Assembly (NCBI RefSeq): GCF_003334385.1
Contig: NZ_QOWN01000006.1
DNA: 64,000 bases
Strand: one strand, 5' to 3'
Source of the DNA: Escherichia coli
Lineage (GTDB): Bacteria; Pseudomonadota; Gammaproteobacteria; Enterobacterales; Enterobacteriaceae
The notes beneath the pieces are model-generated. The model worked only from the letters and a program-made list of their open reading frames with translations, was not told where the DNA came from and did not search any database. Of the stretch, positions 22,315-27,948 are shown one piece after another. Every line of letters begins with the position of its first letter. The stretch's first letter is position 1. A program made the translations under genes and the position numbers.

Positions 22315-23010
22315 TCAGCCAGCGGATGAAAACGCATCTATCACCTTGTGATCGACACCTTCATTCTCCCCCGCCAGTTCGGCACTGAGCTTCGCCATAA
22401 ACTCGACTAAAAAATGCGCGTTGTGCTGCGCCAGCTGCTTGCCTCTTGCGGTTTGCATGGTTTGCGGTAGCTTCAGCAACTTAGTCTGGAAATGATCCAG
22501 CGCGTAGCGTTTATCATCAAGCGGGCGATGCTGTGCGAGCGGATCTTCACCATCAAACAGCGCCACGCCCAATGCCCCTGAAACGGCAAACACGCGCGCC
22601 AGGCCAATCGCTCCCAGGGCTTCCAGCCGATCTGCATCCAGGACGATTTTAGCTTCCGTGGTTAAGGGGGCGATTTGCGCGCTGAAACTGTGAGCGGCAA
22701 TGGCATGACAAACGGCCTCAATTTTCTCCGCCGGAAATTGCACGAACTCTTCACGGAGCAGGCGACGCGTCTCTTCTGCTGCCAGGATTGAAGAACGCTG
22801 CCTTTGCGGATGATTTTTCGCCAGGCTCACAATATCGTGAAAATAACAGGCGGTTAAAATCACCAGCATATCGACGTCGTCATCTGCCGCCAGCTTCTGT
22901 GCCGTAGCCCAGACGCGGCGAAAATGACACACGTCATGGGCCGCGTCCTGGTGCTGATGATGGTTTTTCAACCAATTTTCGAACTGTGCCTGCCAGTGTT
23001 GTAAGTCCAT
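22315..23010 (-). CDS. yedJ: HD-domain phosphohydrolase YedJ
   Basis: 231 aa with HD motif (YFHDIV). Confidence 0.9.
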
Positions 23011-23049: not shown

Positions 23050-23415
23050 TTATTCATAGCGTCTGCTACGTGCGGGACGAGGTCGGGTGTACCAGGCAAT
23101 GCTGCCTAACAATGCCCCGACCAGAGCCATAAATAAAAATCCGACCAGTGCCCCTAACCACTTTCCCGCGGTAGAGCCTAAATCGCTTTCAAATCCCGAC
23201 ACGGGGGCATCGGGGATCCGGCTCATCACCCAGATGTAACGCGCCATTGCCCAGACGAAATAGCCACACCATGTATAGAAAGCCCACAAAGCCAGTTTGC
23301 CGCCAGGGCTGCGAGAGAGTCTCTCTTCCATCTTTGTCGAACCGTATTCCATTTTGAGATAACCCGGAAAATTCAGACTTAGTACTATTATGTGATAAAA
23401 GTCACATTTTTCCAC
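23050..23415 (-). CDS. yedR: Inner membrane protein YedR
   Basis: Two transmembrane segments; start ambiguous (TTG 23433, GTG 23415, or internal ATGs); no clear RBS. Confidence 0.5.
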   Translation of the reverse strand: MEKCDFYHIIVLSLNFPGYLKMEYGSTKMEERLSRSPGGKLALWAFYTWCGYFVWAMARYIWVMSRIPDAPVSGFESDLGSTAGKWLGALVGFLFMALVGALLGSIAWYTRPRPARSRRYE

Positions 23416-23578
23416 ATTGGATGAGCCAGTCAAGACTCACTCATTTTTTGAACAAATAGATAATTTTTGCGCAACGGCAGTGAATACAGGAAAAATCGTT
23501 TTGAGCGATTTTATTTATCTTTGATATCGGCTTTATTAATTCATTTAATCAATATATTAGCACTGATTACAATTATAC

Positions 23579-23669
23579 CTTTTTATTATTCTGTGTCATG
23601 ATGCTTACGTTATTAGCCTTTTATCGTCTTGTTTATATTTTTTGGGCCGGCATGATGCCGGCTTTTTTT
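23579..23669 (+). ncRNA. rseX: Candidate RseX-like small RNA in the yedR-porin intergenic region
   Basis: Intrinsic terminator (gccggca-tga-tgccggc then seven T) at 23646-23669 with no + strand CDS to terminate; I recall RseX mapping between yedR and yedS; 5' end is a guess. Confidence 0.4.
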
Positions 23670-23980
23670 ATACCTTCATTAATGTGCGCGTGATCACACC
23701 AAGTGTTTAGCGCAACAATCATTGATACTCCCTATCTTTCCGCTTAACTCATAACATATTGATATACATTTATAATTTTCATGAATATTTATATTTGGAA
23801 TTCATGATTCTGAATTATATTAAATAGATTAGAAACATTTTGAAATCTTTTAAATACATTTGTTGCATGTAATCCTTAAAATAAAATGAAGTTCATAGAA
23901 TAGTATCCAAATGTGCTTTTTTTTGGATAACGGCACTTATTGATATATTCATGAAGATTATAATCACAAGGGAATACATA

Positions 23981-25039
23981 ATGAAAAGAAAAGTTCTGGC
24001 AATGCTGGTCCCGGCGTTATTAGTTGCTGGCGCAGCAAATGCGGCTGAAATTTATAATAAAAATGGCAATAAACTGGATTTGTACGGCAAGATGGTTGGT
24101 GAGCGCATTCTGACCGACCGTGAAAATGGTGAAAAAGGCGATAATTCTCAAGATACCTCTTATGCCCGTGTAGGCGTGAAAGGTGAAACTCAGATCAACC
24201 CTGAATTGACTGGTTACGGTCAGTTTGAACTAGACCTGGAAGCATCAAACAGACACAACCCTGACCAAACTCGTTTGGCTTATGCTGGTTTGAGTTACAA
24301 AGATTTTGGTTCATTCGACTATGGTCGTAATGTCGGTGTCGCGTATGATGCAGAAGCATTTACTGATATGTTTGTTGAGTGGGGCGGTGATTCATGGGCT
24401 GGTACTGACCTGTTCATGACCAACCGTACCAACGGTGTTGCAACCTATCGTAACACAGATTTCTTTGGCATGGTTGAAGGTCTAAATTTTGCTCTGCAAT
24501 ATCAGGGTAAAAATGAAGGTACAGGCAACTACAAAGCAAATGGCGATGGCCATGGTTTATCTGTAACTTACACTATTGACGGTTTCTCATTTGCTGGTGC
24601 TTACGCAAACTCTGATCGTACTGATTTCCAGTCTAGTGATAGTAAAGGTGAAAAAGCAGAAGTTTGGGCACTGTCAACAAAATATGATGCCAACAACGTC
24701 TATGCTGCTGTGATGTACGGTGAATCTCACAACATGAATTCCGACGACGGTGATGTTGTGAACAAAACACAAAACTTCGAAGTTGTTCTGCAATATCAGT
24801 TCGACTTCGGTCTGCGTCCATCCATCGGTTACTCCTATTCTAAAGCACTGGACGTAGCAGGTTACAAAGATTCTGATCGTCTGAACTACATTGAAATCGG
24901 TACCTGGTATTACTTCAATAAGAACATGAACGTATATACCGCTTATCAGATCAACCTGCTTGATAAGAGTGATTATGTTCTCGCTCATGGACTGAACACC
25001 GACGACCAACTCGCATTTGGTATCGTCTACCAGTTCTAA
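23981..25039 (+). CDS. yedS: General-diffusion porin of the OmpC/OmpF family (yedS-type), apparently intact
   Basis: Signal peptide MKRKVLAMLVPALLVAGAANA, beta-barrel repeats, C-terminal YQF; ORF track start 23951 trimmed to ATG 23981 with RBS. Confidence 0.8.
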   Translation: MKRKVLAMLVPALLVAGAANAAEIYNKNGNKLDLYGKMVGERILTDRENGEKGDNSQDTSYARVGVKGETQINPELTGYGQFELDLEASNRHNPDQTRLAYAGLSYKDFGSFDYGRNVGVAYDAEAFTDMFVEWGGDSWAGTDLFMTNRTNGVATYRNTDFFGMVEGLNFALQYQGKNEGTGNYKANGDGHGLSVTYTIDGFSFAGAYANSDRTDFQSSDSKGEKAEVWALSTKYDANNVYAAVMYGESHNMNSDDGDVVNKTQNFEVVLQYQFDFGLRPSIGYSYSKALDVAGYKDSDRLNYIEIGTWYYFNKNMNVYTAYQINLLDKSDYVLAHGLNTDDQLAFGIVYQF

Positions 25040-25081
25040 TCAGCCAACGCGCCGCGGCGTGTTACTGTAAAACTTAACACT

Positions 25082-25118
25082 AGCCTGAGTTCGTCCCTCA
25101 TCGAACTCAGGCTTTTTT
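25082..25118 (+). terminator. Intrinsic terminator after the porin gene
   Basis: agcctgagttcg ... cgaactcaggc inverted repeat followed by a T-run. Confidence 0.55.
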
Positions 25119-25630
25119 ATTGGCATTTTATCTCCCTCTGCGGCACGCGCAATTGCCAAAGCATATCGATACAGCACCTTACCCTGCCCCTGCTGGCACA
25201 ATAACATCTACCAGCGACTCTTCCAGCCAAGACCCAAATGCATTTCTTTATGAATTAATCTGCAACAAAACCGCCTCCCATATAGAAATATTTGCAAAAA
25301 TAGTGCATGAAATACGCTTTTTCTCTACCAATCCGGGATATAAATATTCATCAGCACCACAATATTCCACAGCACTAAATCTCTCCCCGTCGCCCCGTAC
25401 CTCTGATAATGGTCTAAAATCATTGAGGCCACTTGCGACGACGTTGCTCAATAAGGAAAATTTGGCGTGAATAATATTCAACACCAGTGCAGCATCATCA
25501 TTACATACTTACACCCGCCGACGACCGCTTTCGATATATTGACTCAATTTTCCAGCCTGGTTAAAAATAGCGACCAGCTCAGTCGAAAATATAGTGACTA
25601 CCCTAACTAAGCAACAATAAGGAATACACT

Positions 25631-26482
25631 ATGACTGTTCAAACAAGTAAAAATCCGCAGGTCGATATTGCTGAAGATAATGCATTCTTCCCTTCAGAAT
25701 ATTCGCTTAGCCAATATACCAGTCCCGTCTCTGATCTTGATGGCGTGGACTATCCAAAACCGTATCGCGGTAAGCATAAAATTCTGGTGATCGCCGCGGA
25801 CGAACGTTATTTGCCAACCGATAACGGAAAACTGTTCTCGACCGGTAACCATCCGATTGAAACGTTGCTGCCGTTGTATCATCTCCATGCTGCAGGTTTC
25901 GAATTCGAAGTGGCGACCATTTCCGGTCTGATGACCAAGTTTGAATACTGGGCTATGCCGCACAAAGATGAAAAAGTAATGCCATTCTTTGAGCAGCATA
26001 AATCGTTGTTCCGCAATCCGAAGAAACTCGCGGATGTTGTCGCCAGCCTCAACGCTGACAGCGAATATGCAGCAATCTTTGTTCCTGGTGGTCATGGCGC
26101 ACTTATTGGTTTACCAGAAAGCCAGGACGTAGCTGCTGCTTTGCAGTGGGCAATCAAAAATGACCGTTTTGTTATCTCCCTTTGCCACGGCCCGGCGGCT
26201 TTTCTGGCGCTTCGCCACGGCGATAACCCACTGAATGGTTATTCCATTTGCGCATTCCCAGACGCCGCAGACAAACAAACGCCAGAGATAGGCTATATGC
26301 CGGGTCATCTCACCTGGTACTTCGGCGAAGAGCTGAAGAAAATGGGCATGAACATTATTAATGACGACATCACCGGGCGAGTACATAAGGACCGTAAAGT
26401 TCTCACCGGCGACAGTCCTTTCGCAGCGAATGCGTTGGGTAAACTGGCGGCGCAGGAAATGCTGGCAGCTTATGCGGGTTAA
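25631..26482 (+). CDS. hchA: Glyoxalase III / chaperone Hsp31
   Basis: 283 aa, DJ-1/PfpI fold with catalytic Cys in SLCHGPAA. Confidence 0.95.
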   Translation: MTVQTSKNPQVDIAEDNAFFPSEYSLSQYTSPVSDLDGVDYPKPYRGKHKILVIAADERYLPTDNGKLFSTGNHPIETLLPLYHLHAAGFEFEVATISGLMTKFEYWAMPHKDEKVMPFFEQHKSLFRNPKKLADVVASLNADSEYAAIFVPGGHGALIGLPESQDVAAALQWAIKNDRFVISLCHGPAAFLALRHGDNPLNGYSICAFPDAADKQTPEIGYMPGHLTWYFGEELKKMGMNIINDDITGRVHKDRKVLTGDSPFAANALGKLAAQEMLAAYAG

Positions 26483-26589: not shown

Positions 26590-27948
26590 TTAATTTCTTT
26601 GCGGTAACATAATCCGGAACACATTATGCTTATTGAGATAGTGATACGTAGCACTTCCCCCATGTAATTCGGCAATCGCTTTGACTAAAGAAAGACCAAG
26701 TCCCTGACCTACGGAATGACGCGAATTATCTCCCCGCCAAAATCTACGGAAGAGTTTTTCAGGCTCATGAATTTTCGTTCCAGGACTGGCGACATCAATA
26801 TTAAGATAGCCGTTGGTATCAAGAAAACTGGTTATCTCAATACGCGATTTTTCTGGTGAATATCTAATGGCATTAACAATAAGATTCGATAACATTCGTT
26901 GCAGTAAAATTTTATCCGCAAAGATTTGCTGATTGCACTCGACCTTAAAGCAAATCTCTTTCTCGTCTGAAAGGTATTCAAGATAATCCAACAAATTTTC
27001 GACTTCCTTATTGAGAGAAAGCGAGTCCAGTTTCACCAAAACATTGTTTTTATCTGCCCGGGCAAGAAACAGTATGTTCTCTGTTAACCGCGAAATATTT
27101 TCCAGCTCTTCAATGTTACCGGCAATTGTTTTTTGATATTCAGCGATACTTCTGGTTTGACTGAGCGTAACCTGATTCTGACCCAGTAATGCATTAATGG
27201 GCGTTCTAAGTTCATGAGCGAGATCGTCAGCAAATTGACTTAGGCGTTCAAAATCTTTGACTAAAGCATGATGCATTTTATTCAACGCCTGCCCAAGAGG
27301 TTTTAGTTCTCTCGGTAATGCGCTAACCTCAACAGGCTCCCGGCTATCGTTATAATTCAGCGCTTCCGTTACACCACTCAACTTTTTGATCTCTCGTAAC
27401 CCCGTTCGGATTAACAGCGGACTTAATACTGAGCACAGTATAATGGCGACAATGCAAATTATAATGCTATTGATTTTATACTGTTCAAGCATGTTATGTC
27501 TGGCTGAAGCCAATTTAGCCACAGTAACCGTTAATGATGGCGAAACTTCATCAATATTAATTCGTAAAGCATCTATCTCTGTATCATTAATAATGCTTCT
27601 GTAAATGCCAGCTGCGCTGATTGTCTCACTAGCAGGTATGTTATTTAACATGCCATCACTGACATTTGTCCGGTTAACAATTTTATTGATGCTATCACCA
27701 TGAATGATCAAGATATCCTGACTAACATCCATCATCCGGTTAAAGTACACAGGTAACGTATCTGGATTTACCCCATCAATTAACAACTGCTTGATCTGTG
27801 CTGTCCGGTTAATGAGTGTTGTATCATCGCGCCATTTCAACTCACTTGCCAGGCCATTATAGAGAGTCCAGACAATTCCAGCACCAGCAACAGACAGTAG
27901 CAATATAAAAAGCAAGGTTAAACGGACGGTTATAGACAATCTTTTCAT
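26590..27948 (-). CDS. hprS: Sensor histidine kinase HprS (YedV)
   Basis: 452 aa; two transmembrane segments, HAMP, H-box HELRTP, HATPase domain. Confidence 0.9.
   Translation of the reverse strand: MKRLSITVRLTLLFILLLSVAGAGIVWTLYNGLASELKWRDDTTLINRTAQIKQLLIDGVNPDTLPVYFNRMMDVSQDILIIHGDSINKIVNRTNVSDGMLNNIPASETISAAGIYRSIINDTEIDALRINIDEVSPSLTVTVAKLASARHNMLEQYKINSIIICIVAIILCSVLSPLLIRTGLREIKKLSGVTEALNYNDSREPVEVSALPRELKPLGQALNKMHHALVKDFERLSQFADDLAHELRTPINALLGQNQVTLSQTRSIAEYQKTIAGNIEELENISRLTENILFLARADKNNVLVKLDSLSLNKEVENLLDYLEYLSDEKEICFKVECNQQIFADKILLQRMLSNLIVNAIRYSPEKSRIEITSFLDTNGYLNIDVASPGTKIHEPEKLFRRFWRGDNSRHSVGQGLGLSLVKAIAELHGGSATYHYLNKHNVFRIMLPQRN

Follow-up and report, generated by a model that had tools for sequence, protein, structure and literature searches.

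The stretch of Escherichia coli chromosome analysed here (the window, 64,000 nucleotides) raises the question of what occupies the spacer between a yedS-type porin gene and hchA. The locus reads yedJ (22315-23010, minus strand), drpB/yedR (23050-23433, minus strand), RseX (23580-23669, plus strand; Rfam RF01401, 96.8 bits, E = 3e-13), an intact porin gene encoding 362 aa (23951-25039, plus strand), the spacer (25040-25630), hchA (25631-26482, plus strand, with its ATG at 25631) and hprS (26590-27948, minus strand). RseX, an Hfq-binding sRNA, sits between drpB/yedR and the porin gene, as it does in K-12. A preliminary description had put the spacer at 590 bp and favoured upstream regulatory DNA of hchA, large enough to hide a small gene or an sRNA; the spacer is real, and its length is 591 bp. 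Our analysis indicates that it is very probably a composite of three parts, namely the porin terminator, the relic of a dead UspF/G-like gene with a deletion scar, and a functional hchA regulatory region.

The first part, 25040-25119, is the 3′ end of the porin gene with its intrinsic terminator. A terminator scan of the window places the porin 3′ untranslated region and terminator here on the plus strand, with a 12-pair hairpin at 25082-25113 running into a T-run (TTTTTT, 25114-25119), and the hairpin is kept in all seven Escherichia sequences of a whole-spacer alignment (A1). The porin gene itself is variable. It is a frameshifted pseudogene in K-12 (L001, 1808-3000) and in several other strains (L002 and L048 were compared), and porin alleles diverge strongly among strains and species, spanning 352-418 aa with differing loop regions. 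The strain 'E. coli' SCPM-O-B-8794 has a porin allele close to that of the window, yet its spacer is of the long ancestral type.

The origin of the middle part emerges from a comparison of hchA loci, with one genome per species. Four non-coli Escherichia lineages, E. whittamii (L006), Escherichia sp. E1V33 (L007), 'E. coli' E69 (L005) and 'E. coli' SCPM-O-B-8794 (L008), have a porin-hchA gap of about 1.1-1.2 kb, and an intact minus-strand ORF of 134 aa (405 bp) lies inside it. The same usp-like gene occupies the same position in further assemblies (L052-L055). The L007 orthologue matches the Pfam Usp family (PF00582) with E = 2.6e-9 over residues 1-124, and the best NCBIfam models for the intact protein are UspG (NF012000, 62.9 bits) and UspF (NF011581, 36 bits), over residues 1-115. 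These scores fall far below the equivalog cut-offs of 189 bits for UspG and 166 bits for UspF, so the protein is a separate paralogue. The nearest solved structures are the UspF proteins 3fdx, 3fh0 and 4r2l, over residues 5-114.

Like the UspF/UspG class of the Enterobacteriaceae (also PF00582), the intact orthologue is a single-domain protein of about 134 aa. Unlike that class, it has a shortened C-terminus (VLGATQELGFIDMLRQFSVPLLVI) and, by inspection, lacks G-x2-G-x9-G(S/T), the ATP-binding motif of UspFG proteins; it is also confined to a few Escherichia lineages, and the window keeps only a disabled 250-bp remnant. Because dN/dS among the four intact copies is 0.18-0.36 with zero indels, against 0.04-0.12 for hchA in the same pairs, the ORF is a real gene under purifying, though weaker, selection. 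The paralogue is narrow: a search of 5.8 billion proteins returned only eight clusters at 90% identity, and the gene is not beside hchA in the other genera retrieved (Citrobacter, Enterobacter, Pluralibacter, Pantoea and Stenotrophomonas). In L007, the only minus-strand promoter-like sites are those at 3551-3524 and 3477-3450, both in the segment lost from E. coli, and the porin hairpin is scored as a terminator on either strand, as would be anticipated where two genes converge. On the far side of hchA, L052-L055 (125-1189) and L007 (5132-6217) carry an ORF of about 354-361 aa, not the convergent hprS/hprR of E. coli; in L052-L055 this ORF is called glycosyltransferase family 9-like.

The window retains 250 of the 405 bp as an unannotated minus-strand pseudogene remnant at 25126-25375. 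Local BLAST pairs three segments of the spacer with the long version: 25040-25214 (or to 25229) with the porin terminator and the 3′ end of the usp-like gene, 25284-25366 with the 5′ end of that gene, and 25408-25630 with the hchA-proximal 222 bp or so. The 25284-25366 segment is 78.8% identical to the L006 gene (E = 5e-14), and a gene-only alignment (A2) of the relic with the intact gene gives 63% identity over 249 aligned columns. In blastn the two halves of the relic score 62.6 and 36.5 bits against the intact genes, where the maximum for shuffled sequences was 28.3 (n = 200). The placement of the relic is taken from the local BLAST and A2. These correct A1, a MAFFT global alignment of whole spacers in which 25245-25400 is misplaced opposite upstream intergenic DNA. 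A custom long-gap global alignment yielded many tiny spurious blocks, and only three robust blocks were used. The plus strand is also poor in G across 25100-25450 (GC skew -0.29 to -0.46), a hint of an old minus-strand coding region.

What is left of the gene falls into a 5′ fragment (25264-25375, codons 1-37), a middle fragment (25230-25263, about codons 83-92) and a 3′ fragment (25126-25229, about codons 101-134), all on the minus strand. A 131-bp deletion at the junction 25263/25264 removed codons 38-82 and a 22-bp deletion at 25229/25230 removed codons 93-100, so that 153 bp of the gene are missing. The ancestral start codon has changed from ATG to GTG (25375-25373), the stop codon is lost (25128-25126), and smaller lesions comprise a 1-bp insertion at 25341, 1-bp deletions at 25315/25316, 25295/25296 and 25184/25185, and an in-frame TAG in the 5′ fragment. 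In tblastn the fragments align with the intact protein collinearly, scattered over three frames: NIVVLMNIYIPDW*RKSVFHALF corresponds to residues 4-26, FANISIWEAVLL to residues 27-38, IHKEMHLG to residues 85-92 (IHTYV[HY][FL]G in the intact proteins), EESLVDVIV to residues 103-111 and IDMLWQLRVP to residues 121-130. The relic no longer holds an unbroken reading frame of about 130-150 codons running from a start to a stop codon. Significant, collinear and syntenic homology is thus found together with disabling lesions and a loss of constraint, the combination that marks a pseudogene relic.

The stitched minus-strand translation of the window has no Pfam match even at E ≤ 10 and no relevant NCBIfam match, so the assignment to Usp rests on orthology to the intact gene. 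Judged by that orthology, the window sequence is best described as a descendant of a Usp family member and not as a member itself. A minus-strand motif with the look of GNAT motif A, VDVIVPAGAGQGKVLYRYALAIA, was considered as a trace of an acetyltransferase gene and rejected: it has no Pfam or NCBIfam match, and it is the Usp C-terminal 'ADVIVLGATQE...' region read in mixed frames.

Between the relic and the hchA-proximal region, block mapping defines a deletion scar at 25376-25407, where about 440 bp of ancestral intergenic DNA (L007, 3300-3778) have shrunk to 32 bp. A promoter scan finds no minus-strand promoter-like site left in the window spacer. We propose that a minus-strand UspF/G-like gene formerly faced the porin gene tail to tail and used the same terminator, and that the ancestor of E. 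coli sensu stricto lost it through the 131- and 22-bp deletions, frameshifts and a stop codon. The deletion of about 440 bp would have taken the upstream and promoter region of the gene and left the scar. On this model 25126-25407 would be dead DNA, with the remnant drifting almost neutrally ever since and indels of 1-2 bp making and breaking chance ORFs strain by strain. The adjacent yedS porin pseudogene of K-12 is a close parallel, being likewise intact in relatives, syntenic, disabled by deletions, frameshifts and stops, and near-neutral. It is still full length, whereas the usp-like relic is older and more eroded. Unlike annotated pseudogenes, the relic lies below the detection limit of annotation pipelines, and RefSeq gives either nothing at the spacer (K-12 included) or an occasional, spurious 'hypothetical protein'.

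The distribution of the two spacer types dates the loss. Of 5426 complete E. coli genomes, 4872 carry the short spacer (93-99.8% identity), and none has the long intact version at a threshold of at least 80%, with coverage never exceeding 36%. The two large deletions are identical in the window, K-12 and O8:H8, and 12 aligned E. coli spacers, picked to span the 93-99.8% identity range, differ by gaps of 1-2 bp only. Shared large deletions, small differences and the lack of any intact copy among the 5426 genomes together indicate that the gene died before E. coli sensu stricto diversified. In E. coli TUM2820 (L049, 3001-4233), an insertion of ISKpn26 (IS5 family) or a deletion replaces nearly all of the spacer and the 5′ end of hchA, and an event of the ISKpn26 type probably accounts for some of the E. 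coli genomes, roughly 550 in number, in which the spacer is not matched in full.

Decay was not confined to E. coli. A different, independent decay is seen in an E. marmotae assembly and in a metagenome contig closely related to it (P0049 and P0051; L056 and L057), with an in-frame loss of about 81-90 bp (around codons 75-101) and N-terminal frameshifts, the upstream DNA being kept. In E. albertii the whole usp-like gene is gone, and the terminator and the hchA-proximal 270 bp are kept. Escherichia has therefore lost the gene on three or more occasions (E. coli, the E. marmotae assembly and E. albertii), and these independent losses indicate that it is dispensable.

We then compared nucleotide diversity along the spacer, calculated from 11 E. 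coli strains chosen for their spread of spacer identity. The relic (25126-25375) has a π of 0.072 and the scar (25376-25407), where E. coli spacers vary most, 0.090, compared with 0.041 for the porin 3′ untranslated region and terminator (25040-25125), 0.024 for the hchA-proximal region (25408-25630) and 0.014 for the last 110 bp before hchA. Synonymous and non-synonymous sites of hchA give 0.10 and 0.006, respectively. Diversity in the hchA-proximal part is therefore 3-7 times below that of neutral sites, and this part is clearly constrained, while the relic evolves at nearly the neutral rate. The gap between 0.072 in the relic and 0.10 at synonymous sites could come from noise, a mutational difference or weak constraint.

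A rival reading is that the relic DNA has been exapted for hchA regulation, for instance with its AT-rich core (25240-25350, 33-37% GC) serving as an H-NS nucleation or silencing platform or as a binding region for other nucleoid proteins; the long spacer would then be regulatory along its whole length, in line with the preliminary description. hchA is reportedly transcribed by both the sigma-70 and the sigma-S holoenzymes and silenced by H-NS, and an AT-rich trough does cover 25200-25350 of the spacer; together with a diversity slightly under the synonymous level, these features are compatible with such a role. However, the relic accumulates frequent indels of 1-2 bp and about 25% of its sites vary across 12 E. 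coli strains, its conservation outside E. coli is no greater than homology to the gene explains, and E. albertii has none of the relic DNA yet keeps a 98%-identical hchA and proximal region. We consider exaptation of the relic unlikely. Decay of a dead gene accounts better for these patterns, and we infer that the relic is untranscribed and functionless, although it could still yield a low-level transcript or have been exapted for protein binding (for example by H-NS).

The third part of the spacer, 25408-25630, is probably the functional promoter and regulatory region of hchA together with a short 5′ leader. These 223 bp on the plus strand are conserved in all Escherichia species examined (77-90% identity to L004-L008), and no indels occur in 25400-25630 among the 12 E. 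coli strains. The preference for hchA upstream regulatory DNA in the preliminary description thus holds for this low-diversity, indel-free and genus-conserved segment, the rest of the spacer being accounted for by the usp relic. The segment resembles the hchA (Hsp31) promoter region of E. coli K-12, in that it carries sigma-70-like -35 and -10 hexamers and a good Shine-Dalgarno sequence and is under constraint. In A1, genus-wide invariant blocks contain a -35-like TTGACT (25539-25544), a -10-like AAAAAT 18 bp after it (25563-25568) and a second -10-like element, TATAGT (25590-25595), all on the plus strand. The TTGACT-18-AAAAAT pair is the only promoter-like match in a scan of the spacer, and the Shine-Dalgarno sequence AAGGA, likewise in an invariant block, follows at 25619-25623. 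An invariant inverted repeat, CGACCAGCTCAGTCG (CGAC-N7-GTCG, 25571-25585), sits between the two candidate -10 elements; it is flagged as a weak minus-strand terminator (25585-25571), and by its sequence it looks more like an operator than a terminator.

These hexamers are candidates, matched to real promoters by inference. The accessible literature yielded no transcription start site for hchA: a Term-seq supplement lists at hchA only an antisense site inside the gene, a ROSE supplement has no hchA entry, and the supplements of the EttA paper give no hchA primer sequences. Translation of hchA reportedly depends on EttA through an acidic motif at the N-terminus of the protein (…DIAEDN…; PMC11282234), and this motif is conserved in hchA (codons 1-20, 25631-25690) of the window and L004-L008.

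Two further blocks, CTGA(T/A)AATGG(T/A)CTAAAAT at 25404-25420 and ATAAGGA with a start codon at 25451-25469, are invariant in all Escherichia species examined. Located some 165-225 bp before hchA, they could represent an upstream promoter or leader, or transcription-factor sites. The second block opens a 47-codon plus-strand ORF (25467-25610) with a GTG start and the SD-like ATAAGGA at 25451-25457. Such an arrangement would fit a gene for a small regulatory RNA in the spacer, or else a long, structured leader of hchA in which a uORF at 25467-25610 is translated. All six Escherichia lineages keep ATAAGGA and, 9-11 nt after it, a GTG or ATG start codon; none of the 12 E. coli strains has a broken copy of the ORF, and the conserved 25404-25420 block could supply an upstream -10 element.

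The 47-codon ORF has a pN/pS of 0.45 among E. coli strains and of 0.67 when E. albertii and E. whittamii are added, values not clearly distinct from those of the other two frames, so that no coding signature is seen. In E1V33 and SCPM-8794 a 2-bp indel shifts its frame beyond codon 14. It also overlaps the conserved hchA promoter elements, which alone explain its preservation. Gene finders call it in only a handful of genomes, where it is unnamed, and neither hchA nor the 47-codon peptide appears in the 'Cryptic Bacterial Microproteome' tables. Measured as a small-protein gene, it is thus conserved and preceded by an SD-like sequence, but its pN/pS is undistinguished and its frame is broken in two lineages.

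Signatures of an RNA gene are lacking as well. The spacer has no Rfam match at E ≤ 1, scans of 25120-25630 detect no plus-strand terminator and no additional promoter-like site, and folding energies reveal no excess of RNA structure over shuffled sequences in the relic or the proximal region (z-scores are +0.27 for one strand of the relic, +1.15 for the other, and +0.95 in the proximal region). The earlier suggestion that the spacer may hide an sRNA is not borne out by these results, and a small RNA or a structured leader with a translated uORF is in our view highly improbable. Translation of the 47-codon ORF as a leader is likewise given little weight. The broader proposition, that 25451-25469 begins a translated 47-codon uORF or leader peptide on a long hchA transcript starting from the TAAAAT at about 25415-25420, or else that the dead usp gene was exapted as an H-NS silencing platform, we regard as very unlikely on the sequence evidence. 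If the uORF reading were true, hchA would gain a previously unrecognised layer of translational or attenuation-type control. Most likely, the 47-codon ORF is a by-product of regulatory conservation.

The two overlapping ORFs that first drew attention to the spacer are present exactly as the preliminary description gave them, a plus-strand ORF of 116 aa (25120-25470, TTG start) and a minus-strand ORF of 78 aa (25248-25484, GTG start). Its remark that neither has a ribosome-binding site or a recognisable fold also agrees with our data: sequence inspection finds no Shine-Dalgarno sequence ahead of either start codon, and translations of the window spacer, both ORFs included, match nothing in Pfam or NCBIfam. 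When the spacer was shuffled 3000 times with dinucleotides preserved, the mean length of the longest ORF was 66 aa; 2.1% of the shuffles reached at least 116 aa, and 1.2% had an ORF of 78 aa or more on each strand. The flagged ORFs are thus modestly longer than chance, which fits formerly coding DNA; the excess is no proof of a live gene, since other E. coli strains have not retained these ORFs.

Conservation among the 12 aligned E. coli spacers is poor for both. The 116-aa ORF is intact in three strains and broken in K-12, and the 78-aa ORF is intact in five. Eight indel events separate these spacers, all of 1-2 bp, none a multiple of three and all within 25112-25392. The 116-aa ORF runs antisense to the usp-like relic and starts within the porin terminator tail. 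The 78-aa ORF is a chimera that joins once-intergenic DNA to a frame-shifted N-terminus and then to 12 codons in the true frame; these last 12 codons (FANISIWEAVLL) are its sole stretch in the ancestral frame. Predicted proteins at the spacer (P0001-P0043, WP_001752740.1 of 65 aa and WP_001325374.1 of 136 aa) are fusions of three minus-strand frames that differ between strains. In strain ECCHD184 (L003), whose spacer is 99.8% identical, the locus tags skip from D3W51_RS14020 (porin) to RS14030 (hchA), which suggests that a spacer feature was once annotated and dropped in a later PGAP run.

That one of the two flagged ORFs is a real lineage-specific small protein gene is barely credible: both ORFs exist, with lengths in the top 1-2% of shuffles, and PGAP now and then calls hypothetical proteins such as WP_001752740.1 and WP_001325374.1, but the ORFs survive in only 3/12 and 5/12 strains with the plus-strand ORF broken in K-12, every indel shifts the frame, the called proteins are different frame fusions by strain, ribosome-binding sites and family matches are missing, and the plus-strand ORF begins inside the porin terminator tail. 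The idea that the spacer might hide a small gene thus fails for both ORFs, which, together with the sporadic RefSeq hypothetical proteins, are chance products of decaying DNA and not genes.

The finding is an ordinary one, a gene relic that reveals no new mechanism, and its value lies mainly in annotation. It explains an unusually long intergenic region beside a well-studied stress gene, and it identifies the RefSeq 'hypothetical proteins' at this site (WP_001752740.1 and WP_001325374.1) as artefacts of a decaying gene. It also narrows the probable regulatory region of hchA to about 220 bp. For the genus, the comparison documents a lineage-restricted Usp paralogue, and its losses could serve as markers that separate E. 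coli sensu stricto from some of its sister lineages.
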